Positions 5,107 to 56,327 of a stretch of 64,000 nucleotides of DNA are shown here, one piece after another. How positions within the stretch are numbered: position 1 is the stretch's first letter; every line of letters starts with the position of its first letter. Source of the stretch: Candidatus Saccharimonadales bacterium (GTDB taxonomy: Bacteria > Patescibacteriota > Saccharimonadia > Saccharimonadales > UBA10212). The DNA is taken from assembly GCA_035758565.1 (NCBI GenBank), contig DASTXL010000001.1, forward strand, positions 203,242 to 267,241. Direction: 5' to 3'. The notes under the pieces are model-generated. The model was given only the letters and a program-made list of their open reading frames with translations. It did not search any database and was not told where the DNA came from. Both the position numbers and the translations under genes were made by a program.

Positions 5107-5193
5107 AGGGAAAAGAAAAGCACCGGTTCGCCGGATGGCGAATCTGGATTTATTCCAGAAGGTGCGATAGGAAAAACCGTAGGTTTGTCCTAT
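5107..5193 (+). repeat. Structured intergenic repeat, copy 1 (three-way variant), rplV|rpsC junction
   Basis: AGGGAAAAGAAAAGC box. CACC...GGTG closes two sub-hairpins (GGTTCGCC/GGCGAATC and TGGA/TCCA). Followed by GCGAT and hairpin ATAGGAaAAACC-gta-GGTTTgTCCTAT. Confidence 0.8.
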
Positions 5194-5216
5194 GAACGAC
5201 CGGAGGGAGTGTAGTT

Positions 5217-5846
5217 ATGGGCCAAAAAGTAAATCCAATCAGCATGCGTTTACAAGTCAACAAAGATTGGCGCTCTAAGTGGTTTGCCGGCAAGCGCGAA
5301 TACGCCAACTACCTCAAGCAGGATTTGGCTGCCCGCAAGCTCATTGCCGACAAACTTGGTTCTCGCGCCGCTGTATCTAAGGTTGATATCGAACGCTCGC
5401 CAAACCTAGTCACCGTAACTATCCAGACTGCTAAGGCCGGTGTTGTTATTGGCCGTGGCGGTTCCGGCGCCGCTGAACTCAAAGAGGCTATCGAAAAACT
5501 TTATGGTGTTCCGACCCGCGTAAACATCGAAGAGATTAAGCGCCCTGAGCTGCAGGCCAAGCTGGTTGCCGAAAATATTGCCCACCAGCTAGAACGCCGT
5601 ATTGCCTTCCGCCGCGCCATGAAAATGGCCGCTGCCGGCAGTATGCGTGCTGGCGCTAAGGGCATTCGCATAGAAGTTTCCGGTCGCCTAGGCGGTATGG
5701 AAATGAGCCGTCGCGAAAAAATTACTGAAGGCTCTGTGCCTCTGCACACGCTTCGCGCTGACATTGACTACGCTGCTGCCCGCGCTCTTTACCCGGGTGC
5801 CGGCATCATTGGTGTTAAAGTTTGGATCTACCGAGGGGAGACCTAA
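5217..5846 (+). CDS. rpsC: 30S ribosomal protein uS3
   Basis: MGQKVNP start, KH-domain sequence and operon position. Confidence 0.95.
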   Translation: MGQKVNPISMRLQVNKDWRSKWFAGKREYANYLKQDLAARKLIADKLGSRAAVSKVDIERSPNLVTVTIQTAKAGVVIGRGGSGAAELKEAIEKLYGVPTRVNIEEIKRPELQAKLVAENIAHQLERRIAFRRAMKMAAAGSMRAGAKGIRIEVSGRLGGMEMSRREKITEGSVPLHTLRADIDYAAARALYPGAGIIGVKVWIYRGET

Positions 5847-5849
5847 GCC

Positions 5850-6266
5850 ATGTTAATGCCATCCCGAACTAAGTACCGCAAAGTGCGCAAAGGCAAGATC
5901 CACGGCGGCAAAGCTACCGCCCTATCTACTATTGCCTACGGCCGCTACGGACTGGTTAGCCAAGACAAGGAACGCATTAATAGCCGCCAGATCGAGGCTG
6001 CCCGCCAGGCTATGACCCGTTACGTTAAACGTGGCGGTCAGATCTGGATCCGTATTTTCCCGCACACCCCAGTTACCCGTAAGCCACAAGACGTGAAGAT
6101 GGGTAGCGGCAAAGGTAATCCAGAATTTTTTGTTGCCAAGGTTAAGCCAGGGACCATCATGTTTGAGATGGACGGCGTGCCAGAAGAAGTAGCTCGCGAA
6201 GCTATGCGCCTTGCTGGTCACAAACTACCTGTTAAGACCAAGTTTTTAGTTAAGGAGGAGGCGTAA
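5850..6266 (+). CDS. rplP: 50S ribosomal protein uL16
   Basis: [11 protein letters not shown] start and KMGSGKG motif. Confidence 0.95.
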
Positions 6267-6283
6267 TGGTTTCTTTTGCTAAA

Positions 6284-6357
6284 AGGGAAAAGATAGCCCA
6301 GGCAAAAACCACGCTTTTTGCCTGGCGCGATAAGAAAAACCGCAGGTTTGTCTTATC
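6284..6357 (+). repeat. Structured intergenic repeat, copy 2, rplP|rpmC junction
   Basis: AGGGAAAAGATAGC box; hairpin CCAGGCAAAAA/TTTTTGCCTGG; CGCGAT linker; hairpin ATAAGAaAAACC-gca-GGTTTgTCTTAT. Confidence 0.8.
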
Positions 6358-6380
6358 TGAAGTTAAGGAGGAGGCATAAG

Positions 6381-6581
6381 ATGAAAATTGCTGAAATCCG
6401 CAAGCTAAAAACAGAGGAACTGACCAAGCAAAGCAACTCATTGCGTGAAGAAATTGCCGAATTAAAGCGCCGGCTATATAGCGGCGAAGTATCTAACACC
6501 CGTGTTATCCGCTCTAAGCGCAAAGATTTAGCCCGAGTATTAACAGTTTTACAAGAACAACTAACCAAGGAGGCCCAATAA
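6381..6581 (+). CDS. rpmC: 50S ribosomal protein uL29
   Basis: The ATG at 6381 follows an AAGGAGGAGG SD. Sequence MKIAEIRKLKTEEL... is typical of uL29. Confidence 0.9.
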   Translation: MKIAEIRKLKTEELTKQSNSLREEIAELKRRLYSGEVSNTRVIRSKRKDLARVLTVLQEQLTKEAQ

Positions 6582-6599
6582 ATGACCTCTTCCATTTTT

Positions 6600-6671
6600 A
6601 GGGAAAAGACAGCCCGACAAAATGTATTCCATTTTGCCGGCGCGATAGGAAAAACCGTAGGTTTGTCCTAT
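6600..6671 (+). repeat. Structured intergenic repeat, copy 3, rpmC|rpsQ junction
   Basis: Identical over 72 nt to copy 7. Hairpins are CCGaCAAAATG/CATTTTGcCGG and ATAGGAaAAACC-gta-GGTTTgTCCTAT. Confidence 0.85.
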
Positions 6672-6694
6672 GAACGACCGGAGGGAGTGTAGAT

Positions 6695-7000
6695 ATGGCC
6701 CGTTCAATTACCGGCACTGTGACTAGCGATAAAGGCGACAAGACTATCGTCATTACTATGCGCGTCCGCAAAACCCACCCCCTATATAAGAAGCAGTACA
6801 CAGTCGATACCAAATTTATGGCCCATGACGAAAAGAACGAGGCTAAAGTTGGCGATCTAGTCATGATCACCGAATGCCGCCCTTTGAGCGCCCGCAAACG
6901 CTTCCAGTTGACCAAAGTGTTGGAGCGCGGCGGGGTTCGCTTTGAAGAATCTGACGCTACAGCTGATATCCCGCAAGAAGAGAAAGAAGGAGAAGCTTAA
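6695..7000 (+). CDS. rpsQ: 30S ribosomal protein uS17
   Basis: GTVTSDKGDKTIVI motif and operon position. Carries an acidic C-terminal tail. Confidence 0.9.
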   Translation: MARSITGTVTSDKGDKTIVITMRVRKTHPLYKKQYTVDTKFMAHDEKNEAKVGDLVMITECRPLSARKRFQLTKVLERGGVRFEESDATADIPQEEKEGEA

Positions 7001-7372
7001 ATGATTCAGCAAGAATCCCGCCTGCTTGTTGCCGATAACAGTGGCGCCCGCTCACTTCTTTGCATTCGTGTTCTAGGCGGTTCGCGCCGCCGATACGCCC
7101 GCGTTGGCGACATTATTGTTGCTAGCGTCAAAACCGCTAACCCAGCTGGCGGCGTAAAGCGCAAGAGCATCGTTAAGGCGGTAGTAGTGCGTACTCGTAA
7201 TCCGATTCGCCGCGCTGATGGCAGCACTATTCGCTTTGATGACAACGCCGCTGTAGTACTCGCCGAGGATGGCAAGAGTCCACGTGGTACCCGTATCTTT
7301 GGCCCGGTTCCACGCGAACTGCGCGAGCAAGGTTACAGCCGAATTATTTCACTAGCTCCGGAGGTACTGTAA
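7001..7372 (+). CDS. rplN: 50S ribosomal protein uL14
   Basis: [16 protein letters not shown] start. Confidence 0.95.
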
Positions 7373-7701
7373 TGGATAAGATCTTTAAGATCCGGCTAAA
7401 AAAAGGCGATACTGTTATGGTTCGCTCAGGTAAATATAAGGGTAAAACCGGTAAAATCACGGCCGTTCATCCCAGAGAAAACAAAGTAACAGTCGAAGGC
7501 ATCAATGTGGTTAAGCGCCACCGCAAACCCACTCAACTTCGGCCTCAAGGCGGTATTTTTGAGATTACAAAGCCGATTGACGTTAGTAAGGTTGGAGTTT
7601 TGGACTCAGTAGCCAAAAAGCCTTCGCGAATTGGCTTTAAGATCGACAAAGATGGCAAAAAAGTTCGTGTTTTAAAGACCAGCGGAAAGGAGATTAAGTA
7701 A
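7372..7701 (+). CDS. rplX: 50S ribosomal protein uL24
   Basis: KOW motif (KKGDTVMVRSGKYKGKTGKI) and operon position. Confidence 0.9.
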   Translation: MDKIFKIRLKKGDTVMVRSGKYKGKTGKITAVHPRENKVTVEGINVVKRHRKPTQLRPQGGIFEITKPIDVSKVGVLDSVAKKPSRIGFKIDKDGKKVRVLKTSGKEIK

Positions 7702-8366
7702 TGGCTACGTCTCCTGATGTAAGGAAAAAGAGCAGCCCGAGCGGCGATTCACTCGACGCCCGGCGCGATGAGAAAAAACCATCGGTTTTGTCTCATAAGG
7801 CCGAAGGCCGCAGTTACGAATCTCGCTTGAAAGTGGCCTACAACACTAAATTCGCTCGTGAACTCAAAGACGAGCTTAAGCTAGATAACATCAACCAGGT
7901 TCCAAAGTTAGAGAAGATTACAATTAACGTTGGCCTGGGTCGTGCCAAAGACGATAAACGCTTGCTGGAAGTTGCTGCCAATACTATCCGCAAAATTACT
8001 GGTCAGCAACCAATCGAAACTGTGGCCAAACAGTCAATCGCAACCTTTAAGCTGCGCGAAGGTAACAAAATCGGTATGAAGGTTACCTTACGCGGCGACC
8101 GTATGTACGATTTTGCCGATCGCTTGATCAACATTGTTCTCCCACGTCTGCGCGACTTTCACGGCACTAGCAACCGGGCTTTTGACCGCCAAGGCAACTA
8201 CAGTATTGGCCTAACCGACCAGTCGGTCTTCCCCGAACTTAGTTACGAAGATACAGCTACCGCTCACGGGCTTCAGGTAGTGTTTACTATCCGGACCCAA
8301 GAGCCAGATCACGCTAAAGCACTGCTGAAGAAATTCGGCATGCCATTTGAGAAGGAGAATTCCTAA
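7701..8366 (+). CDS. rplE: 50S ribosomal protein uL5 with an N-terminal extension encoded by repeat copy 4
   Basis: The conserved uL5 core starts near RLKVAYNTKF...QVPKLEKITINVGLG. The only ATG is at 7701, overlapping the rplX stop. In-frame TTG 7827 and GTG 7833 lack a well-placed SD. Confidence 0.85.
   Translation: MATSPDVRKKSSPSGDSLDARRDEKKPSVLSHKAEGRSYESRLKVAYNTKFARELKDELKLDNINQVPKLEKITINVGLGRAKDDKRLLEVAANTIRKITGQQPIETVAKQSIATFKLREGNKIGMKVTLRGDRMYDFADRLINIVLPRLRDFHGTSNRAFDRQGNYSIGLTDQSVFPELSYEDTATAHGLQVVFTIRTQEPDHAKALLKKFGMPFEKENS
7722..7796 (+). repeat. Structured intergenic repeat, copy 4, inside the 5' end of the rplE ORF
   Basis: AGGAAAAAGAGCAGC box; imperfect hairpin CCGAGCGGCGA/TCGACGCCCGG; CGCGAT linker; hairpin ATGAGAaAAAACC-atc-GGTTTTgTCTCAT. 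Confidence 0.7.
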
Positions 8367-8382
8367 AATGTTGAATTTAGTA

Positions 8383-8455
8383 ATGGAAAAGAGCAGCCAG
8401 AGTTTGGATTCACTCCAAACCCTGCGCGATGAGAAAAACCGCAGGTCTGTCTCAT
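8383..8455 (+). repeat. Structured intergenic repeat, copy 5, rplE|rpsN junction
   Basis: TGGAAAAGAGCAGC box; hairpin CAGaGTTTGGA/TCCAAACcCTG; CGCGAT linker; hairpin ATGAGAaAAACC-gca-GGTcTgTCTCAT. Confidence 0.8.
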
Positions 8456-8477
8456 GCTCTGATAAGGAGGATAAATA

Positions 8478-8747
8478 ATGGCCAAGAAATCAATCCTCGC
8501 GCGTGATGCGAAACGAGACAAAATGATCGCTAAATACGCCGCTAAGCGCGCCGAACTCAAAGCAGTCGGTGATTACGAAGGCCTAGCCAAATTGCCTCGC
8601 AATTCTAGCCCGACCCGTCACACTAACCGCTGCGCCGAGACAGGCCGCCCACGCGGATTTATGCGTCAGTTTGGTTTATCTCGCATTGCTTTCCGCGAGC
8701 ACGCCAGCCGGGGCGAAGTTCCAGGCGTAACAAAGAGTAGTTGGTAA
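8478..8747 (+). CDS. rpsN: 30S ribosomal protein uS14 (long, non-zinc form)
   Basis: [13 protein letters not shown] start, [18 protein letters not shown] motif and a ...KSSW end. Confidence 0.95.
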
Positions 8748-8774
8748 GAATATATGAGTACATTCCATTTAATA

Positions 8775-8861
8775 AGGGAAAAGAGTAGCACCGGTCCGGC
8801 AATTGCCGGATTTGGATTCATTCCAAAAGGTGCGTTGAGGAAAACCGTAGGTTGTCCTCAA
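8775..8861 (+). repeat. Structured intergenic repeat, copy 6 (three-way variant), rpsN|rpsH junction
   Basis: AGGGAAAAGAGTAGC box. CACC...GGTG closes TCCGGC/GCCGGA and TTGGA/TCCAA. Followed by hairpin TTGAGGAaAACC-gta-GGTTgTCCTCAA. Confidence 0.8.
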
Positions 8862-17372: not shown

Positions 17373-17395
17373 AAATGATGTATTTGCAGCTAAAT

Positions 17396-17467
17396 AGGGA
17401 AAAGACAGCCCGACAAAATGTATTCCATTTTGCCGGCGCGATAGGAAAAACCGTAGGTTTGTCCTAT
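17396..17467 (+). repeat. Structured intergenic repeat, copy 7, rpsK|rpsD junction
   Basis: Its 72 nt are identical to copy 3 (6600-6671). Confidence 0.85.
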
Positions 17468-17486
17468 AAGGACGGAGTCCGCTAAG

Positions 17487-18107
17487 ATGGCACGAGATAC
17501 TCAAAGTATAGTTAAAATGTCTCGCCGTGAAGGCTACGCTCTTCACCCTAAGGCTCACAAAGCCCTGGTTAAGCGCAGCGCCCTACCTGGCCAGCAGAAC
17601 ACCGGCGGCTACAACCGCACTAAGTCTAGTCAGTATTCATTGCAGTTGCGCGAAAAGCAGAAAGTGAAGAGACTTTACGGCCTATTAGAGCGTCAATTCG
17701 CTAAATTAATGACCGAGGCCAGCAAAGCCCGCGGTCAATCCGGCGCAACTTTATTGCAGTACCTAGAGCGGCGCTTAGACAATGTTATTTACCGGGCTGG
17801 TTTAGCGCCAAGCCGCCGCGCCGCGCGCCAAATGGTCACTCATGGCCACTACATGCTCAATGGCCGCCGAGTTGATGTTCCCTCTATCCGTGTTAAGGAA
17901 GGTGATGTAATCGTCGTGCGGGATCACAGCAAAGGCAGTGATTATTTCAAACGCCTGGAAGATACCAGCCCAGCACCGGCCGCTTATCCTGCCTGGTTGA
18001 AGGTTAATCGCAAAAAGCTGGAGGTTACTATTACAGGTATTCCTACCCGTGACGATGCCGAACCAGACATCAAAGAACAGTTAATCGTAGAATATTATTC
18101 ACGCTAA
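17487..18107 (+). CDS. rpsD: 30S ribosomal protein uS4
   Basis: SRREGYAL motif, an S4 domain (RLDNVIYRAGLAPSRRAARQMVTHGH) and operon position. Confidence 0.95.
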   Translation: MARDTQSIVKMSRREGYALHPKAHKALVKRSALPGQQNTGGYNRTKSSQYSLQLREKQKVKRLYGLLERQFAKLMTEASKARGQSGATLLQYLERRLDNVIYRAGLAPSRRAARQMVTHGHYMLNGRRVDVPSIRVKEGDVIVVRDHSKGSDYFKRLEDTSPAPAAYPAWLKVNRKKLEVTITGIPTRDDAEPDIKEQLIVEYYSR

Positions 18108-40855: not shown

Positions 40856-40893
40856 GGCGGAGCGGACCCAAAAAATCCCCAGTTTGTTATAAT
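40856..40893 (+). promoter_or_regulatory. Island cassette repeat R2
   Basis: GGCGGAGCGGACCCAAAAAATCCCCAGTTTGTTATAAT. Six nt separate the -10 box from the ATG at 40900. Confidence 0.65.
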
Positions 40894-40899
40894 TCATTC

Positions 40900-41145
40900 A
40901 TGGCAGAGGATGAATTTACTAAACTTTTCAAATACATCACCGAACGTTTCGACAAGGTAGATGCAGAGCTTGAGAAAAAAGCCGATGCAGCTCTGGTAGA
41001 AAAAGTTCTGGCTTTGATTGATAAGATTGCCAAACAACAGGAAATCAACGACGAAGAACGCCTGGTCATGGGCCACCAGTTGGACAGAATGGACCGCTGG
41101 GTCCATGAGCTGGCCGACAAGATTGGTTATAAACTTTCAGTTTAA
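40900..41145 (+). CDS. Small coiled-coil hypothetical protein
   Basis: 81-aa ORF with a leaderless-type start. Confidence 0.45.
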   Translation: MAEDEFTKLFKYITERFDKVDAELEKKADAALVEKVLALIDKIAKQQEINDEERLVMGHQLDRMDRWVHELADKIGYKLSV

Positions 41146-41158
41146 GACTGTAGTGATT

Positions 41159-41287
41159 ATGAAGCTCAAAGGAAAAGTAGCAAAAATTGGCAAAGCGACG
41201 GTTGTTGTATTCGATAAAGCCATGTTCGAAAAGTCAGGTTTGAAGGTTGGTGATTTGGTAAGCCTAGCTGGTATCAAAAAGCTTTAA
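41159..41287 (+). CDS. Very small AbrB/MazE-like (SpoVT-AbrB fold) candidate
   Basis: 42 aa: MKLKGKVAKIGKATVVVFDKAMFEKSGLKVGDLVSLAGIKKL. The call is a weak pattern match only. Confidence 0.25.
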   Translation: MKLKGKVAKIGKATVVVFDKAMFEKSGLKVGDLVSLAGIKKL

Positions 41288-41296
41288 CGGCTAACT

Positions 41297-41557
41297 GCTC
41301 CATTTGTTCTGGCAAAACGGAATCTAAAAATCTCGAACCAAAGCTACGTTCTTTACCAAAGAACCAAATGTTTTTCATCCATTTCTTGGTCGCGAAGAAA
41401 CGGAAGCCAAAGAACGACAGGCAACTCACTCCCGCAGGACTGTTTCGTACGTTCATGAAAAGGGAAGACTGCGGAACTCGTGCTTTGGGCACTCAAACAG
41501 TCCTCGCTTCAGACTTTTCATAAACTTCTTTAGCAGCTCTGGTTCGCTCGAGCCTGG
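41297..41557 (+). repeat. Repeat family copy A (modules 1+2)
   Basis: Aligns with 43389-43604 (same strand) and with the reverse complement of 47505-47732. Ends in GGTTCGCTCGAGCCTGG. Confidence 0.8.
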
Positions 41558-41570
41558 GGTTTTTGAGCCG

Positions 41571-41609
41571 GGCGGGGCGGACCCAAAAAATCCCAAGATT
41601 GCTTATGCT
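41571..41609 (+). promoter_or_regulatory. Island cassette repeat R3 (divergent -10 part)
   Basis: GGCGGGGCGGACCCAAAAAATCCCAAGATTGCTTATGCT. The downstream gene has its own GGAGGAAGC SD. Confidence 0.5.
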
Positions 41610-41656
41610 TGCAATGTTGAATCGTTAAGAATATATTTCTGTTAATCGGAGGAAGC

Positions 41657-42016
41657 ATGGCAGAGAGAACACATCCAAATGAAAAGTACGTAGAAAATCT
41701 ATTTAACGACGCTATTAATTGGCTAGGTGTAGTTGGAGAATATGACCATAATATTCCAAAGGAAGATAATCCCTACAACCGGTCGGTAGATAAGGCCCTA
41801 AACTTCTTAGCTAGCCAAATCGCCGAAAGTTCAATAGATATAGCCATGCTACTATCTACCTTAGAACGACAAGCACAGACAGTAGTTGCCGAATCTGATG
41901 ACCTCTATGGGGACTTGGACAGAGTTATTAGGACCAATCAAATGTATGTGCTAGCCAGGACGATGAACGCATATTCTTCGCCAGAACGTATTGTTCACAT
42001 CCCGCTGGAAGTGTAA
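41657..42016 (+). CDS. Hypothetical protein
   Basis: 119-aa ORF with a CGGAGGAAGC SD. Confidence 0.45.
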   Translation: MAERTHPNEKYVENLFNDAINWLGVVGEYDHNIPKEDNPYNRSVDKALNFLASQIAESSIDIAMLLSTLERQAQTVVAESDDLYGDLDRVIRTNQMYVLARTMNAYSSPERIVHIPLEV

Positions 42017-42027
42017 ACCCTCAGCCG

Positions 42028-42065
42028 CTGAGGCAAACCCAAAAAATCCCAAGTTTTGATATAAT
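42028..42065 (+). promoter_or_regulatory. Island cassette repeat R4
   Basis: GCTGAGGCAAACCCAAAAAATCCCAAGTTTTGATATAAT. Six nt separate the -10 box from the ATG at 42072. Confidence 0.6.
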
Positions 42066-42071
42066 ATTCTT

Positions 42072-42167
42072 ATGAATAAAGTAGCAACAAAGCCGAACGT
42101 TCAGGTCTGGACAAAGAACTTCATCAAGAAGTACTCTCCGGCTTTAAAAGAGCTGTCCAAAAAATAA
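42072..42167 (+). CDS. 31-aa candidate antitoxin partner of Doc
   Basis: MNKVATKPNVQVWTKNFIKKYSPALKELSKK. It ends 6 nt before the doc start, in the usual upstream position of an antitoxin. Confidence 0.3.
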   Translation: MNKVATKPNVQVWTKNFIKKYSPALKELSKK

Positions 42168-42173
42168 AAATCT

Positions 42174-42560
42174 ATGAACCAAATATCGGTCGACGATGTT
42201 GTTTACATCCACGACCATATTATTGCCGCTTCTGGCGGTCTTACGGGACTAAGGGATAAAGGACAGCTCAAAGCTTGCCTAGCCAGGCCTTTTCAAAGCG
42301 CTTTTGGTGAAGAAACATATCCCGATCTGTTCGAGAAAGCAGCCGCCTTACTGGACTGCATTGCCAATGATCATCCGTTTGCAGATGGCAATAAACGAAC
42401 AGCCATGGCGTCGGCAGTTATCTTTCTGGTGTCGTACGGTATATCTACCGACTTCACGAACCAAGAATACGAAGATTTCATGCTCCACGTCGTTAATGAT
42501 AAGCCGAGCATCCAAGAGATTGCCAACTGGCTTCGCCAACACGGCGACATAATTATTTAA
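42174..42560 (+). CDS. doc: Fic/Doc-family toxin (death-on-curing type)
   Basis: HPFADGNKRTA matches the Doc variant of the Fic motif, and the 128-aa size fits. Confidence 0.8.
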   Translation: MNQISVDDVVYIHDHIIAASGGLTGLRDKGQLKACLARPFQSAFGEETYPDLFEKAAALLDCIANDHPFADGNKRTAMASAVIFLVSYGISTDFTNQEYEDFMLHVVNDKPSIQEIANWLRQHGDIII

Positions 42561-42566
42561 AACACA

Positions 42567-42603
42567 GGCGGGGCGGACCCAAAAAATCCCAGTTTGATAT
42601 AGT
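42567..42603 (+). promoter_or_regulatory. Island cassette repeat R5
   Basis: GGCGGGGCGGACCCAAAAAATCCCAGTTTGATATAGT. Seven nt separate it from the ATG at 42610. Confidence 0.65.
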
Positions 42604-42609
42604 TTTTAT

Positions 42610-43374
42610 ATGTACAAGTCATTTACAGCAGATGATTATCGCAAACACTTAAAGCTGCCGGCCGATTATGTTGTTGATGGTTTTTTAATTTACGGCACGT
42701 TTAGAAAGTTCCCATACGAACAGTTGGAGGATTCACTCAAAAAACAAAGGATAGAATATCAAACCGCAAAAATTGGCGACGAATATTTTGACCCAGTGCT
42801 TACGTTTAGGGTAGGCAATAATAATTATTGGTTCACTATTGCTTACGGCGGAACAATGCTAAGCGAATATCTACATTTAGCCTGCACGTTTGGCAGCAAG
42901 AAGAACCTTTTGATAGGTAGTTGCGGCGGGCTCAAAAAAGGCGCGTCGAGTTTGGACATCATAGTTCCGGACTGGAGCTATGGCGACGAAAGTTCCGCGA
43001 GGTCCTATCAGAACGAAAAAGATGGTAAGCAGTATTCGGACACTTCGATTTCTGATAGGTTGGCAGATAAACTAGCCGATAAATACAAGGTGCACCGTGG
43101 TCCAACCGTCACTCATCAAGCAATGCTTGGTGAAACCTGGGAAGACATTGAGCGCTGGGCACAACAGGGCTATATTGGCGTAGAGATGGAAGCATCTACT
43201 GTTTTTGCGGTATCGAATCATTTTAAAGTACCCTCGGCTGCCATTCTTCACATTGGCGATAACCTTATAGAAGAAGAAACGGTTATGGACATAAATTACG
43301 AAACCAACCGCGATTTACACAGGCAAGTTTCTCAAGACATCTTCGATGCAGCCGTTGAAGAATTACTTAAATAG
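42610..43374 (+). CDS. Nucleoside phosphorylase-superfamily (PNP_UDP_1-like) protein
   Basis: GSCGGL and GVEMEAS motifs. Confidence 0.5.
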   Translation: MYKSFTADDYRKHLKLPADYVVDGFLIYGTFRKFPYEQLEDSLKKQRIEYQTAKIGDEYFDPVLTFRVGNNNYWFTIAYGGTMLSEYLHLACTFGSKKNLLIGSCGGLKKGASSLDIIVPDWSYGDESSARSYQNEKDGKQYSDTSISDRLADKLADKYKVHRGPTVTHQAMLGETWEDIERWAQQGYIGVEMEASTVFAVSNHFKVPSAAILHIGDNLIEEETVMDINYETNRDLHRQVSQDIFDAAVEELLK

Positions 43375-43388
43375 CTTTTAGACGCAAA

Positions 43389-43604
43389 CTCAAAAATCCA
43401 TGTTCTTTAGCAAAGAACCAAATGTTTTCAACCATTTGATTCGGCAAACGGTTGACCAAAGCCGACAGGCATTCGCTCCGGCAGGGCTGGTTCGTACGTT
43501 TTTAAAAAGGGAAGACTGCGAAACTCGCGGATTGGCGCTTCAAACAGTCCTCGCTTCAGGCTTTTCATAAACTTCTCACCAATCTCTGGTTCGCTCGAGC
43601 CTGG
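43389..43604 (+). repeat. Repeat family copy B
   Basis: Shares GTTCTTTagcAAAGAACCAAATG...AAAAGGGAAGACTGCGaAACTCG...CAAACAGTCCTCGCTTCAG...GGTTCGCTCGAGCCTGG with copy A. Confidence 0.8.
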
Positions 43605-43641
43605 ATTTGATTAACGTAAAATTAAAGTCCCTATATTTGCT

Positions 43642-44550
43642 ATGATGAATCTCATGAAAACGGACTATTCTCTTGAATGGTTTCAGGAGAGAGCATTTAA
43701 ATCACTTAAGAAAATCAAAGAAGGCCAGTGGGACTATTCAGATCCATCATTGATCTACGTGCCTGACGAGGAAGAAAAATACGAAACAGTTCAGCAGAGC
43801 GGAAGTCGATACCACGAACTTATCACGGAACCAGAAAAGAAGTATCTGGAACAAATTGCACCAATAGTAGCAAATGCGCTGCCAAATGATTTTGAATATA
43901 TCGATCTCGGTCCTGGCAATGCACATAAAGAACAATATATTTTTGACGCGCTCAAAGCCCTGGGAAAAAAATTTAAGTACATCCCTGTAGACATAGATAA
44001 AAAATATCTTGATCTTGCTGCTCGGCATGCAGAGCGACAAGGTATCGAGGTTTCAGATGCTCAGCTACTCTTCGAAGAATTACCGTACAGATTGCCAGCA
44101 AGTCATACCCCGCGCTTTGTTTCCATCGGAATGACGTTTACGAACTATGCGCCTGACACGATCTTGCCGCTGTTGAAGAAGATTGCCGGTCAATCCGGAT
44201 ACGTCTTGACTAATTCACAGATCAGGGAACGGCTAGATATGGCCGCGGTCACGGATGTTTATCAGGATGAGGTTTATGCGTTACTGGAGACAAAGATAAG
44301 GTTGCTAGGACTTCGTCCCTCAGATCTTGAAAAGCAATGGTGCGACGACGGCATCAGAGCCTGGTTTAAGATAAAGAATGTCAGCCAAGATCTCAGCAAG
44401 CTCGGCGTCAGAGCTGGTGATGAGTTCTTAGCCTATTATTTCTTTAGGCCGACTATAAAATCGCTTTCAGAAAGCTTCAGCCGACACTTCGACAGCTTCA
44501 AACTGCTCGATATTAACGCCGCCTTTGTGGCCGGCCTACTCTTTACCTAA
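43642..44550 (+). CDS. SAM-dependent methyltransferase (EgtD/Methyltransf_33-like)
   Basis: YIDLGPGNAHKEQYIFDAL resembles the SAM-binding motif I of EgtD-type enzymes. This is the only supporting motif. Confidence 0.35.
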   Translation: MMNLMKTDYSLEWFQERAFKSLKKIKEGQWDYSDPSLIYVPDEEEKYETVQQSGSRYHELITEPEKKYLEQIAPIVANALPNDFEYIDLGPGNAHKEQYIFDALKALGKKFKYIPVDIDKKYLDLAARHAERQGIEVSDAQLLFEELPYRLPASHTPRFVSIGMTFTNYAPDTILPLLKKIAGQSGYVLTNSQIRERLDMAAVTDVYQDEVYALLETKIRLLGLRPSDLEKQWCDDGIRAWFKIKNVSQDLSKLGVRAGDEFLAYYFFRPTIKSLSESFSRHFDSFKLLDINAAFVAGLLFT

Positions 44551-44554
44551 AACC

Positions 44555-44596
44555 GGGCGGGGCAAACCCAAAAAATCCTCTTATTGTTAATATAGT
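44555..44596 (+). promoter_or_regulatory. Island cassette repeat R6
   Basis: GGGCGGGGCAAACCCAAAAAATCCTCTTATTGTTAATATAGT, followed by a second TGTTATAAT. Confidence 0.5.
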
Positions 44597-44671
44597 CATA
44601 TTATGTTATAATTTACTTATCTTTGGAAGCAATTCCTCAGATTGTAATGTCATCCTATTCTAGGAGGCATC

Positions 44672-45133
44672 ATGGACGATCAGACGGTGAGCCCCGAGGC
44701 TCGCACCGCTGCCAAGTGGTGGGCAGACCAGCTGCGTGGGCCGGCGAGGATGGACAACGGATCGCTTGAGTACTCCATGGAGACCGGCGACCCGAACCAC
44801 TTCGACCAGGCCATCACGACGATGGGTCTCGCAGGGATACTCAACGAGCGCGAACGCTCCGGCCTCAGCGACGAGCAGATCTCCGTGTTCGAAGAAGCGC
44901 TCGCAAGGCGCGTCCAGGAGCGGCTGCAGCAGTCCGGTGAGTTCGGCGTCACGATCGACGTCGACTACCACCCGGACTACCTGCTCGTCGACAGCGCGGA
45001 CGAGGCCGGCATTCGTGTCGGCATGACGCTCTTCCCCTGGAAGACGACCATGTGGATCGAGACCGGAAGCGTCAGGGTGAGCTGCGGCTACCGCGGCCCG
45101 ACCGAGGACCTGTCGATCGCCACCGCGTCATAG
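44672..45133 (+). CDS. High-GC hypothetical protein (horizontally acquired, actinobacterial-type codon usage)
   Basis: 153-aa ORF with a TAGGAGG SD. Codon third positions are almost all G/C (GAC, GAG, CTC, ACG, ATC), unlike neighbouring genes. A GC-rich terminator hairpin follows (GGGCGGGAGC...GCTCCCGCCC). Confidence 0.65.
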   Translation: MDDQTVSPEARTAAKWWADQLRGPARMDNGSLEYSMETGDPNHFDQAITTMGLAGILNERERSGLSDEQISVFEEALARRVQERLQQSGEFGVTIDVDYHPDYLLVDSADEAGIRVGMTLFPWKTTMWIETGSVRVSCGYRGPTEDLSIATAS

Positions 45134-45254
45134 GAGAAACAGCCCTCATTGCCGTTTCCACGGGCGGGAGCCGTAGAGCTCCCGCCCCAGCGCCATGAAC
45201 GCTTCTGCATTTGCAGTCAAGCGCCTTGGCGCTTTTTTCGATTCTAAAATCATC

Positions 45255-45286
45255 GGGGCGGACCCAAAAAATCCTGGTCTGTATTC
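45255..45286 (+). promoter_or_regulatory. Island cassette repeat R7 (divergent 3' part)
   Basis: GGGGCGGACCCAAAAAATCCTGGTCTGTATTC. A GATATAAT box lies at 45301-45308. Confidence 0.5.
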
Positions 45287-45331
45287 TTCGCTAAAACGAA
45301 GATATAATTGCGGTAAGGATGGTCTAAGAGT

Positions 45332-46507
45332 ATGAGCCGAGAAAATAGAGTTTTTAAATTAACCTTTCTTGTCGTCGCCAAGGACTGGGACGAAGTAATT
45401 ACTGTCTTCAAAAAAGAATTAGGAATCACAAAAGTTAAAGAGGACATTGGTGACTACAAGATGGCGGGTCACTATATTGTTGGATTAGATTTATCTGATA
45501 GAGACCTAAGCGACGGTTTCTATGGAAAGATTCATGCAAGTTCAACAATAACTCTGTTAAGCGACAAGGCATCTGATGAGCGAGCACAAAAGATCCTGGA
45601 CCTCGCAAGACCAATTGAGCTAAAGCTTAGAGAGTTAATTATCTATGCTCACGAGCTAGTTGACGCGTACTTCGACATTATTCAACCTAAAAGTCCTGTG
45701 GCGAAGAGGTTTATGGGCTCTAAGCAATTAGTGGGCAAGGAAGTTTTAGATTCGGCCGTTTCATTTCTCGACCTAGGGGAAATTATAAAAGTTCTGGGAA
45801 GTGATGGGAATGAGGTCGACACAACCAGACCCACAGACGACATAGTTAAACTGCTAGAGGCAACTTCGAACTTTGAACAATTTAAGGAAAAATTGATTAA
45901 GAAGTTTAAGCGCCTAACGGTCTGGGATGTTATTGCGAAGACGGTTTTGCAACAACCGATTTCTTGGTTAAGTATCAAAGATGACTTAAACGAGCTAAAA
46001 AACATCCGTAATGTAGCCGCTCATTTTAGAATCGCAACGCCGGATAATCTTAAGAGAGCGACCGAATTGTCAGGAAGTTTACTACCCCAGCTATCGAGAA
46101 AGCCGGACCCGGACCGAAAAGCAATTGAGGAGATGGCTCAAACTTTTTCTGTGTGGGCTAAAGAATACGAGTTGTTCAAGGAAGTAAATAAAGCCGCACT
46201 TGATGCTATAAAGGTTAATAATAGTTTTCTTACGCAGGCCACTAAAGACATTTCAAACTCTTTCAGATCTGCAATCCCAGACATAAATTCTTCGATATCA
46301 AACTTTAATACAGTTTCAGGTTCGATATATCCAGATTCTTTATTGCGAAGTATGGCGTTTCCTGATATTTCGTCGATAAATCCAGGAGCGGGTTTGCATA
46401 AGGCTAGTCCTGATATCGGGAAATTCTTGGGCAGTGAATACGATAGCGACCAGGGTGACAGCGAAGATGAAGATAGCACTTCTATGGCGCCTGTTAAGAA
46501 AAAATAA
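45332..46507 (+). CDS. HEPN-domain protein (Rx4H; Swt1/Abi-like)
   Basis: LNELKNIRNVAAHFR contains the R-x4-H HEPN signature in the usual helical context. The C-terminus is low-complexity and acidic. Confidence 0.5.
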   Translation: MSRENRVFKLTFLVVAKDWDEVITVFKKELGITKVKEDIGDYKMAGHYIVGLDLSDRDLSDGFYGKIHASSTITLLSDKASDERAQKILDLARPIELKLRELIIYAHELVDAYFDIIQPKSPVAKRFMGSKQLVGKEVLDSAVSFLDLGEIIKVLGSDGNEVDTTRPTDDIVKLLEATSNFEQFKEKLIKKFKRLTVWDVIAKTVLQQPISWLSIKDDLNELKNIRNVAAHFRIATPDNLKRATELSGSLLPQLSRKPDPDRKAIEEMAQTFSVWAKEYELFKEVNKAALDAIKVNNSFLTQATKDISNSFRSAIPDINSSISNFNTVSGSIYPDSLLRSMAFPDISSINPGAGLHKASPDIGKFLGSEYDSDQGDSEDEDSTSMAPVKKK

Positions 46508-46514
46508 AGACATA

Positions 46515-47477
46515 ATGAAACTGCCAAACCGCGACAAAATCATCAACGAGCTTACTCGCCGCTATGAAGAAGTGCTTAGGAGATCTGAGAGCAGATTGAA
46601 GAATGACGAGGACGCACGTCAATTTATATCGCTGATCGCCCACTATATTAACTACATTAAGCAAGACGAACTCACAGAGGAAGCCATAACAAAATTATTT
46701 AAAAATAAAGAGGCACTCGCGAGTGATCAAGTTCTTATTGATGAGGCAGATAAAATCATAGTTCAGTTAAGAAAAGATCGTAATAAGGTTGTTAAATTTG
46801 CAGCCAAACAAGGTATTGATACTGGACCGTATCAATTTAATACTTCCAGCACGGCTCAACAGATTACGCTAGACAAGGAGGTCTCTTTTAACCTTAGCTT
46901 CTTGGACAATTTCCTCAAACTTCCCAGCGACCATCAAAGAGTCAGTGATTTACCAAATCAAATAGGTCATTTCCGCTCAATTATTTTTGCCACCACGCAA
47001 TTAGCGGGCGAGACAAGAGCACTCACAAAGTTAAAGTCTGACTATAGCGATATATCTAACGAGTTTGCAAAGAAGCTAAAGATGCAGGGCGTGTATTTAA
47101 ATTATCTACGGATTGAAGATTATCAAGCCCTAGAGGTTGTTTGGCGAGAGGTTTATCAAGAGAGCGATCATGATGAGCAATTTATATTTCACTTTATGTA
47201 CGGAGATTTGTTTGAAAAAAACCGAACTTTTTCTCCCGGTCAACAAAATGATGCAAATGAATTTGTATCAAAATATATGAGCCACCTACAACGCGTGCAT
47301 AACTACCTAATCGATGGACTTGAGAATGCGCCCTCTTCTGAAAAATTTGTTAAGTGGCTTGTAGAACATTTTGGCCCAACTTTAGCTTCAGTAATAATCA
47401 TCCTAGTAATATATGTAATTCTCCGTCATCTAGGTCTGAAGATAGACATAAACTCACTAAAGAATTGGGTCGGGTAA
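46515..47477 (+). CDS. Hypothetical protein with a C-terminal TM anchor
   Basis: The ATG at 46515 is 8 nt after the HEPN gene stop. The C-terminal helix is LASVIIILVIYVILRHLGL. Confidence 0.45.
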   Translation: MKLPNRDKIINELTRRYEEVLRRSESRLKNDEDARQFISLIAHYINYIKQDELTEEAITKLFKNKEALASDQVLIDEADKIIVQLRKDRNKVVKFAAKQGIDTGPYQFNTSSTAQQITLDKEVSFNLSFLDNFLKLPSDHQRVSDLPNQIGHFRSIIFATTQLAGETRALTKLKSDYSDISNEFAKKLKMQGVYLNYLRIEDYQALEVVWREVYQESDHDEQFIFHFMYGDLFEKNRTFSPGQQNDANEFVSKYMSHLQRVHNYLIDGLENAPSSEKFVKWLVEHFGPTLASVIIILVIYVILRHLGLKIDINSLKNWVG

Positions 47478-47504: not shown

Positions 47505-47732
47505 CCAGGCTCGAGAAAACAGAGAGAGTGAGGAGCGAGTTCAAAAGTCTGAACCGAGGACTGTTTGAGCGCCAAACGGCGAGTTCCGCAGGTTCACTTT
47601 TGGCGATTGTGCGAGCGACCATCTAGTTTTCGAATGCCTGCCGTTTCTTGGCTTCCGTTCTTTCGCGGCCAAAGAATGGAAGAAAACATTTGGTACTTTT
47701 CAAAAGTACATTCTTGCCAGAACAAAATGGAA
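47505..47732 (-). repeat. Repeat family copy C (inverted orientation)
   Basis: Its reverse complement aligns with copy A. On the plus strand the core 47506-47640 is closed by CAGGCTCGAGAAAAC...GTTTTCGAATGCCTG. Confidence 0.8.
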
Positions 47733-49462: not shown

Positions 49463-49552
49463 AGGGAAAGGTAGTAGCTCCGGTTCGGCTTTGGCCGAAT
49501 CCGGATTTACTCCGGAAGGAGCGTTGAAGGAAAACCGCAGGTTGTCCTTCAA
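49463..49552 (+). repeat. Structured repeat, copy 8 (three-way variant; orphan, outside any operon junction)
   Basis: AGGGAAAGGTAGTAGC box. CTCC...GGAG closes GGTTCGGC/GCCGAATC and CGGA/TCCG. Followed by hairpin TTGAAGGAaAACC-gca-GGTTgTCCTTCAA. It has no start codon, and stop codons occur in the frames used by the other copies. Confidence 0.75.
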
Positions 49553-56194: not shown

Positions 56195-56327
56195 GCACTC
56201 GAGAAAACAGAGGGAGCGAGTAGCGAGGCAAAAGCAGTATCGAGGACTTGTCTGACGAACAAAGTGAGGAGTCCCGCAGATTCACTTTTGACGAGCAACC
56301 GAGCGACCATCTAGTTTTCGAATGTGC
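56195..56327 (-). repeat. Repeat family copy D (module 2 only)
   Basis: GCACTCGAGAAAACAGAGGGAGCGAG...CTAGTTTTCGAATGTGC parallels 47506-47640, with compensatory closing pairs (GCAC/GTGC compared with AGGC/GCCT). Confidence 0.7.

Follow-up and report, generated by a model that had tools for sequence, protein, structure and literature searches.

The HEPN clade that comprises Abi2/AbiD/AbiF and the Swt1-like proteins has been described as 'embedded in R-M operons', that is, in operons of restriction-modification genes (PMC3710099). Such an arrangement is found in at least 16 HEPN clades and is exemplified by PrrC-EcoprrI, in which PrrC, a latent HEPN anticodon nuclease, is restrained by a type I restriction-modification system (PMC3710099). 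The catalytic features of HEPN domains are an Rx4-6H motif with a polar residue (N, D or H) after the arginine and an upstream acidic residue in an Ex3[KR] motif, and a precedent for membrane-associated forms is provided by single-polypeptide fusions of an all-α domain, one transmembrane (TM) helix and an Abi2/Swt1-type HEPN domain (PMC3710099). The present analysis concerns two adjacent genes in a 64-kb stretch, here termed the window, of a 483.5-kb contig from a metagenome-assembled genome of Candidatus Saccharimonadales; positions are given in window coordinates. Open reading frame (ORF) 1 occupies 45332–46507 on the plus strand, from ATG to TAA, and encodes 391 residues (HEU5004736.1 at NCBI, hypothetical, with the same gene call). 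ORF2 follows at 46515–47477 on the same strand and encodes an all-helical, tail-anchored protein of 320 residues (HEU5004737.1, hypothetical). The signatures and profile matches described below make it very probable that ORF1 is a HEPN superfamily protein, and its nearest relatives lie within type I restriction-modification operons.

An exhaustive phmmer search of 1.84 billion cluster representatives recovered an ORF1 family of 92 representatives at E ≤ 1e-3, including 18 at E ≤ 1e-30, most of them 330–400 residues long and alignable over their full length. A k-mer-prefiltered search returned only the query when ORF1 was used alone and four proteins when a 71-sequence profile was used, and a locus search with the single ORF1 protein found nothing in genome contigs. 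Mean column identity in the alignment of 71 members is 24%, and the only invariant columns are E96, W198, R226 and H231. The last two belong to the segment LNELKNIRNVAAHFR (residues 219–233) and delimit the predicted catalytic R-x4-H motif, R226-N-V-A-A-H231 (46007–46024, plus strand; R226 at 46007–46009 and H231 at 46022–46024). This HEPN signature had been picked out in an earlier note made from the sequence of the stretch, and both residues prove to be kept in 71 of 71 members. The fuller form R-[ND]-x-x-A-H is likewise present in all 71, the residue after the arginine being N in 56 and D in 15, and E-x3-[RK] (E96 and position 100; nucleotides 45617–45631) is present in 70 of 71, with R at position 100 in 55 members and K in 15. 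The family has all three sequence features of catalytic HEPN domains, namely an R-x4-H spacing of four, N or D after the arginine, and E-x3-[RK]. A motif of the type R-[ND]-x3-H arises in 2.7% of shuffles of a single protein of ORF1 composition, so that its presence in one sequence is weak evidence and the weight lies on its invariance across the family.

The distribution of the family was examined with a degenerate DNA pattern across W198...R-[ND]-x-A-A-H, which is estimated to fit about one-quarter of the family and which matched 26 loci among 185,579 species-representative genomes. All 25 true matches are in Saccharibacteria; locus L022, from Armatimonadota, was rejected as a chance match of the DNA pattern. 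Neither the ORF1 family nor the ORF2 family was found in viral contigs (IMG/VR) or plasmids, and our literature search found no paper that names both Saccharibacteria and HEPN.

The window ORF1 matches the HEPN_RiboL-PSP model over residues 179–241, a region that spans the motif, with 15.2 bits (E = 0.021; cut-off 28.4). Among the 71 relatives, Pfam matches comprise HEPN_RiboL-PSP in 7 (best E 8.6e-5), Swt1 in 7 (4.9e-4), Abi_2 in 5 (1.8e-5) and Cthe_2314 in 1, and PADLOC matches comprise PD-T4-2_B in 9, AbiD in 3, Cas13a in 2, and Csx1, CARF_HEPN and DUF3644 in 1 each. PHROG 2158, an 'abortive infection resistance protein', is matched by 18 of the 71 (best E 2e-6) and NCBIfam Csm6 by 1. With PD-T4-2_B and DUF3644 left aside, the recurrent models are HEPN, Abi or HEPN-bearing CRISPR models, and the best E-values of these sub-threshold matches (1.8e-5 and 2e-6) are still significant after correction for 71 queries. 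The sole match of ORF1 itself in PADLOC-DB v2 is HamA (E = 0.0094), with no meaningful region. Because ORF1 scores below the curated thresholds, these profile comparisons place it in a family of its own inside the HEPN superfamily, outside every curated Pfam HEPN family. The Swt1/Abi-type HEPN RNase of the earlier note is upheld in part: the signatures and the convergent Abi_2, Swt1 and AbiD matches of the relatives agree with it, and a curated cut-off is not reached.

In the AlphaFold model, ORF1 has a mean confidence score (pLDDT) of 82.7, with most of residues 1–260 above 90 and most of residues 329–391 below 50. The structure begins with an N-terminal α/β domain (residues 7–78; 45350–45565, plus strand) that has a strand-helix-strand-helix-strand order and pLDDT values above 90. 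An all-helical HEPN-like domain follows (residues 79–253; 45566–46090, plus strand), which rests on the model, the alignment and the HEPN profile matches and which holds E96-x3-R100 and W198. The remainder (46115–46504, plus strand) comprises a long helix (residues 262–329) and a disordered Ser/Asn-rich acidic tail (residues 330–391). The acidic low-complexity tail noticed earlier is therefore present: the last 31 residues contain 9 D/E as compared with 4 K/R, end in KKK and are predicted to be disordered, and acidic tails are common across the family. The weak Foldseek matches of ORF1 concern the N-terminal domain and are to ferredoxin-like folds of the NapD, ACT and PII-like kinds (E 0.2–0.6); this domain could be a sensor or regulatory domain. 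Four family members match CHAP or peptidoglycan-hydrolase models. In the two that were inspected, P0068 and P0069, a CHAP-like domain comes straight after the HEPN-like domain and replaces the helical/acidic tail, and the usual catalytic Cys position of this domain appears, on reading of the sequence, to be Ser.

The nearest relatives of the window protein, P0017 (46% identical), P0018 (40%) and P0019 (43%), lie in all three examined cases within type I restriction-modification operons, between hsdM and hsdS. The gene order in locus L009 is HsdM, a gene of 172 residues, the ORF1 homologue, HsdS, AAA_13 and HsdR, and each gene up to AAA_13 overlaps the one before it by 4 nt. L046 has the same order with extra small genes inserted, and L008, on a short contig, has the ORF1 homologue followed only by HsdS, again with a 4-nt overlap. 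The window ORF1 belongs to the subclade P0017–P0020, and it is the three examined members of this subclade that are restriction-embedded. In another subclade, a DUF167/YggU gene lies 13 nt downstream of the ORF1 homologue, among DUF2130, Fic and HsdM genes. In a further subclade, known from many Saccharibacteria of the mouth and gut, the homologue stands alone, with a two-component system (response regulator) on one side and hisG on the other. At 5764–7813 of L046, an ORF1 homologue is located between two unrelated membrane proteins, one of 157 residues with several TM helices and one of 189 residues with an N-terminal TM helix, an arrangement that hints at a wider link of this HEPN family to membrane partners.

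ORF2 had been described as a 320-residue helical protein with a single C-terminal TM anchor, and this description is borne out. Its AlphaFold model is all-helical (pLDDT 80.7) with a helix at residues 274–305, and a Kyte-Doolittle profile places the C-terminal hydrophobic segment at residues ~281–312 (47355–47450, plus strand; core LASVIIILVIYVIL). The ORF2 family contains 15 clusters at 90% identity; the 14 homologous clusters are 40–74% identical to ORF2 and all have ~320 residues. A single hydrophobic segment at the C terminus is found in 15 of 15 members (19-residue Kyte-Doolittle windows ≥1.6). ORF2 has the character of a tail-anchored protein, in that the sole hydrophobic helix is C-terminal and there is no N-terminal signal or other TM segment. 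The sequence W-x3-H-F-G-P-T is conserved just before the TM helix, and many polar and aromatic residues are invariant in the family. The ATG start (320 residues) is preferred over an upstream GTG (347 residues); it is backed by the NCBI call and matched by a conserved N terminus, M-x-LPNRDK, in 14 homologues. ORF2 has no match in Pfam or NCBIfam, and in PADLOC it matches only Cas11a (E 0.051, with no meaningful region). Comparison of the ORF2 profile with PDB sequences, and of the ORF2 model with PDB folds by Foldseek, gave nothing significant. A relationship to the α-pore-forming toxins XaxB, SmhA/B and AhlB/C (E 0.4–1.8, TM-score <0.2) was rejected as generic helical-bundle noise, and profile-profile comparison gave no relationship between ORF1 and ORF2 (0.2% probability). 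With no PADLOC match for either protein beyond those already dismissed, the pair is not a named system, in line with the earlier note, which did not recognise it as one.

The homologues of ORF2 are found in varied surroundings. In L004 and L005, a protein of 371 residues overlaps the start of the ORF2 homologue by 4 nt, and the neighbours are a type III system in L004 and an MvaI/BcnI-type enzyme in L005; the 371-residue partner has no similarity to ORF1 and no family match. In L006, L007, L036 and L037, a type IIG enzyme and an ORF of 43 residues (2409–2540 in L006) precede the ORF2 homologue. The last 15 residues of this small ORF are those of the C terminus of the 371-residue protein, which identifies it as a remnant and indicates that the type IIG gene has replaced nearly all of the 371-residue partner. 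Upstream of the ORF2 homologue there is a Zn-ribbon protein in L038 and small unknown genes in L001 and L003, and the homologues in L039 and L043 have no same-strand neighbour. Large serine recombinases are located alongside ORF2 homologues in L003, L039 and L043. In L041 (3196–5019), an ORF2 homologue of 50% identity is followed 25 nt downstream by a CAP12/Pycsar-type TIR protein (27.2 bits versus a cut-off of 24.7). The ORF2 family resides in mobile and defence neighbourhoods and is often, not always, tightly coupled to an effector-like gene.

In the window, the stop codon of ORF1 (46507) and the ATG of ORF2 (46515) are separated by 7 intergenic nt, in agreement with the earlier description of closely spaced genes of 391 and 320 residues, the second starting 8 nt later. 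A promoter module, whose function is inferred, precedes ORF1 at 45254–45308 on the plus strand. It consists of a copy of an island repeat (45254–45281; core GGCGGACCCAAAAAATCC at 45257–45274), a -35-like CTGTAT (45279–45284), an 18-nt spacer and TATAAT (45303–45308), the hexamers being read from the sequence. This is the copy of the island repeat (R7) that the pair had been said to possess. A scan for terminators located a terminator-like hairpin at 45219–45234 on the plus strand (AAGCGCC-TTGG-CGCTT, then TTTTTC) that ends the upstream gene of 153 residues and so keeps that gene apart from the ORF1-ORF2 unit. With a 7-nt gap, a single promoter module and a terminator ahead of that module, ORF1 and ORF2 form a probable single transcription unit. 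The GC content is 40.9% for ORF1 and 38.7% for ORF2, as compared with 47.7% for the window.

The two families occur together at one locus outside the window, L045. Here an ORF1-family gene (hidden Markov model E 3.8e-105) is followed 12 nt downstream by an ORF2 homologue that is 70% identical to the window ORF2. The ORF1-family protein shares only 32% identity with the window ORF1 and belongs to another subclade, its nearest relatives being P0027 (47%) and the DUF167-linked subclade. At the DNA level, L045 matches the window over ORF2 and 60 nt downstream, over the region of the ribosomal protein L10 leader (85%) and over 22 identical nt of the island repeat (168–189 of L045); it also carries HicA and a Pol-β nucleotidyltransferase inserted at this locus. 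Two distinct versions of the nuclease are thus paired with one ORF2 clade at the same locus, and the origin of the L045 gene from another subclade argues against pure chance. The pattern fits cassette exchange of the upstream gene under selection to keep that kind of partner, and repeated capture, by a hot spot, of a family that these genomes commonly carry would account for it as well. An extended reading, which we consider unlikely, is that Saccharimonadales have a modular defence system in which a protein of the ORF2 family is the fixed, membrane-anchored subunit and the partner gene is interchangeable. The partners would be two HEPN subclades (window and L045), the TIR protein (L041), the 371-residue protein (L004 and L005) and possibly the Zn-ribbon protein (L038); ORF2 would serve to detect a signal of the envelope or of injection, or to position the effector, and the cassettes would be swapped at the ORF2 start codon.

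The best explanation of these observations, to which we assign a probability of about 0.5, is that ORF1 is a latent, metal-independent HEPN endoribonuclease of the Abi2/Swt1-like type with ORF2 as a facultative membrane accessory, and that their role is anti-phage, as argued by analogy with described systems. ORF1 would dimerise and form an RNase site from R226, N227 and H231 together with E96 and R100, and it would be kept silent in healthy cells by the N-terminal domain, the acidic tail and/or the partner. Phage attack would activate the protein, after which cellular or phage RNA would be cleaved, translation would stop and the infection would be aborted, by analogy with PrrC and Abi proteins. 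The gene in the window would have left the type I restriction-modification operon typical of its closest relatives and would now share a promoter with ORF2 in a variable island of low GC content that lies immediately ahead of the rplJ leader. As an accessory, ORF2 may tether the nuclease to the cytoplasmic (inner) side of the membrane or regulate it there, and it would not be an obligate partner. Functional coupling of ORF1 and ORF2 is a tentative proposal, for which we put the odds somewhat below even.

Several observations weigh against this explanation, some of them concerning ORF1 itself. The window protein stays below the curated cut-off of every HEPN model (15.2 versus 28.4 bits), and it matches neither Swt1 nor Abi_2. 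Foldseek comparison of the ORF1 model with PDB and BFVD returned no HEPN structure (best E 0.08–0.15), and PDB sequence searches with the ORF1 profile, with a domain-only profile and with the domain alone returned nothing relevant; in these comparisons, the structural similarity to HEPN proteins that the earlier note had put forward as a check was not found. Foldseek is weak on small helical bundles. If ORF1 were not a HEPN protein and R-x4-H were a family-specific motif in an unrelated helical fold, these negative results would be expected, as would a helical domain of ~175 residues rather than the canonical 100–120 (PMC3710099). We find this improbable because three independent HEPN signatures are essentially invariant in the family and the sub-threshold matches from four libraries converge on HEPN/Abi models, the best at 1.8e-5 and 2e-6; moreover, HEPN families with long inserts are documented (PMC3710099). 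As to the setting of the gene, the HsdM, HsdS, HsdR, AAA_13, type IIG, type III and MvaI proteins of the related loci had no tblastn match in the 64-kb window and, since restriction-modification genes resembling these are missing there, a PrrC-like logic is not directly applicable to the window copy. At least eight species-level genomes have the ORF1 homologue in the same place, flanked by the response regulator and hisG, and a conserved stand-alone position of this kind looks less like that of a mobile defence gene. It would suit a Saccharibacteria protein with a housekeeping or regulatory role in RNA processing or RNA binding, for which the restriction contexts are incidental, as would the confinement of the family to one phylum-level lineage and the part that HEPN domains also play in RNA processing (PMC3710099). 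Such a role is nevertheless very unlikely given the patchy spread (25 species representatives found with a pattern estimated to fit about one-quarter of the family), the high divergence of the family (24% mean column identity), the location of all three nearest relatives examined inside type I operons, and the low GC content and island location of the window copy.

Other observations concern the pair. An ORF2 homologue is absent from 28 of the 29 ORF1-family loci outside the window, and an ORF1-family gene is absent from eight of the nine distinct ORF2 contexts outside it, L045 being the exception in both cases. L045 is syntenic with the window, so this recurrence is not an independent context. 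The co-occurrence that had been proposed as a check is accordingly limited to 1 of 29 and 1 of 9 cases, which are the same locus, and the pairing is not conserved in general and is not obligatory. In addition, the ORF2 homologue stayed intact after the type IIG gene replaced nearly all of the 371-residue partner. The two counts would be explained if ORF1 and ORF2 were unrelated cargo that came together in an integration hot spot ahead of rplJ, ORF1 being a HEPN nuclease that acts alone or with a distant partner, ORF2 an independent gene of the island or of a mobile element, and their adjacency and co-transcription without functional meaning. The monocistronic ORF2 homologues of L039 and L043, the serine recombinases beside ORF2 in L003, L039 and L043, and the variability of the locus (HicA and the Pol-β nucleotidyltransferase in L045, a foreign gene of 65% GC in the window) point in the same direction. 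We regard such an accidental association as doubtful, in view of the short gaps (7 nt in the window and 12 nt in L045) with no separate promoter for ORF2, the occurrence of two ORF1 subclades directly ahead of closely related ORF2 genes, and the 4-nt overlap of the ORF2 homologue with its upstream gene in L004 and L005, which suggests that translational coupling is usual in the family. A functional pair could also be a toxin-antitoxin system, with ORF1 a constitutively active HEPN RNase and ORF2 a neutralising antitoxin that also holds it at the membrane. HEPN toxins are common in such systems (PMC3710099), the operon is a tight two-gene unit, a Doc toxin is present in the island and HicA in L045, and an orphan antitoxin would be harmless, which fits the solitary ORF2 genes. 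However, most ORF1-family genes have neither ORF2 nor a common alternative partner and often stand alone, as would be impossible for an unneutralised toxin. ORF2 is also large (320 residues), membrane-anchored and better conserved than ORF1 (70% versus 32% between the window and L045), all of which is atypical of an antitoxin, and the searches revealed neither an MNT fold nor any other fold known from antitoxins; there is little to recommend this reading. The candidate defence or abortive-infection pair of the earlier note is sustained in its defence aspect by the type I operons of the relatives and by the Doc toxin gene of the island, and as a two-gene system it is only partly supported.

The island in which the pair is located has its own repeat architecture. 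The 18-mer GGCGGACCCAAAAAATCC is present in six copies within 40861–45274, as compared with 0.06 expected by chance. The copies lie ~8 nt ahead of a -35-like TTGnnn and TATAAT, before six consecutive island genes, and the hexamers that follow the copies other than that of ORF1 are TTGTTA or TTGATA, plus TATAAT. Because every copy is located just before promoter-like hexamers, we read the repeat as a shared promoter architecture and not as the end of a mobile element; the genes behind it probably make up a small regulon, with the repeat acting as their common promoter, UP-element or regulator-binding module. A second, intergenic repeat of ~200 nt has an inverted copy at 47510–47711 (minus strand) that marks the downstream edge of the island and corresponds to the inverted repeat copy C that had been said to bound the pair. 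Its other copies are at 41340–41557 (plus strand), 43394–43604 (plus strand) and 56198–56324 (minus strand), and the four copies have the conserved core …CTGCGGAACTCG…TCAAACAGTCCTCG…CTCGAGCC. The repeat has no Rfam family, a test for structured RNA gave only a weak consensus fold (-8.7 kcal/mol), and the 45 loci searched contain no further copy. It could be an element similar to a miniature inverted-repeat transposable element or a small RNA. Intergenic repeats of another family, 55–79 nt in length (…GCGCGATAGGAAAAACCGTAGGTTTGTCCTAT…), occur in the window at 5107–8853, 17395–17490 and 49464–49542, and the copies at 6599–6671 and 17395–17467 are 100% identical across 73 nt.

The gene directly upstream of ORF1 (44672–45133; HEU5004735.1, hypothetical) encodes 153 residues and has 65.4% GC, with 87.7% at third codon positions, in a window of 47.7% GC. 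It is a singleton cluster with no family match, and it looks like a recent foreign gene of actinobacterial-type composition. Saccharibacteria live on Actinomycetes, which makes such a composition notable. L045, too, opens with the tail of a GC-rich gene, and its copy of the island repeat follows shortly after. Farther upstream in the window, a gene at 42174–42560 encodes a Fic/DOC-family toxin (Pfam E 4.3e-19), which shows that the island bears toxin-antitoxin cargo. The gene is preceded by an ORF of 119 residues (41657–42016) that has no family match and may be the antitoxin of this toxin. A Methyltransf_33 (EgtD-like) gene is located at 43642–44550 of the window and also at 7081–8313 of L001, where it lies beside an ORF2 homologue of 52% identity; its presence near ORF2 in both places may be a remnant of an older common neighbourhood. 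The island ends at the ribosomal protein L10 leader (Rfam RF00557; 48094–48218; 44.1 bits versus a gathering score of 44), which is located just upstream of rplJ and rplL. The site ahead of rplJ looks like a variable hot spot in this clade, because the island ends at this leader and L045 has a leader region of 85% identity.

Saccharibacteria and other bacteria of the Candidate Phyla Radiation have tiny genomes in which CRISPR is rare. How they resist phages is largely unknown, a question on which the ORF1 family bears, and direct phage attack on a cultivated member was shown only recently (PMC13578794). ORF1 represents a lineage-specific HEPN family that has no curated model and is repeatedly built into type I operons, and it would be a testable second-line defence gene. 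ORF2 represents another unannotated family, found with restriction enzymes, recombinases and effector-like proteins. As an anti-phage module, the pair is plausible and unproven. If the two proteins cooperate, they would constitute a split-gene version of the membrane-associated HEPN nucleases known so far only as domain fusions; if they do not, the analysis still yields a new model with which this HEPN family can be annotated, and it delimits a variable hot spot ahead of rplJ. The finding would be no surprise to a specialist unless the modular role considered for ORF2 holds.

When the pair is compared with described systems, the HEPN-MNT type II/VII toxin-antitoxin systems are similar in that a HEPN protein is one product of a tight two-gene operon and toxin-antitoxin genes abound in the surrounding island. 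They differ in that ORF2 has no nucleotidyltransferase match or fold match and the upstream ORF of 153 residues has no family match, and also in that MNT has its HEPN partners in a different, classical clade and ORF1 homologues often stand alone. The membrane-associated Abi2/Swt1 HEPN fusions (PMC3710099) are similar in the kind of parts, an all-helical globular domain, a single TM helix and a HEPN domain. Here, in contrast, the parts are split over two genes with the HEPN gene first, which is the opposite order, and the partnership is facultative. PrrC with EcoprrI, and likewise RloC, resemble the closest ORF1 relatives in their place inside the hsdM-hsdS-hsdR operon and in a predicted logic of a second-line suicidal RNase. 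Unlike PrrC and RloC, ORF1 has no ABC-ATPase domain; two of the relatives' operons also have a separate AAA_13 protein, and, unlike that of PrrC, the window copy has no restriction-modification genes nearby. The Abi2/AbiD/AbiF and Swt1-like clade (Abi_2 PF07751, HEPN_Swt1 PF18731 and HEPN_RiboL-PSP PF18735) shares with ORF1 a motif of the R-N-x-x-A-H type, an upstream E-x3-[RK] and an all-helical domain. ORF1 differs in the addition of an N-terminal α/β domain, a long C-terminal helix and an acidic tail; only Saccharibacteria have so far yielded members of its family, the score of the window protein is 15 bits, and no member of the 71-sequence alignment is shown to pass a curated cut-off. The nearest relatives of ORF1 are located in type I operons, and sub-threshold matches to the models of this clade are recurrent in the family. 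ORF1 probably works like, and descends from, the restriction-linked HEPN nucleases of the Abi2/Swt1 type.

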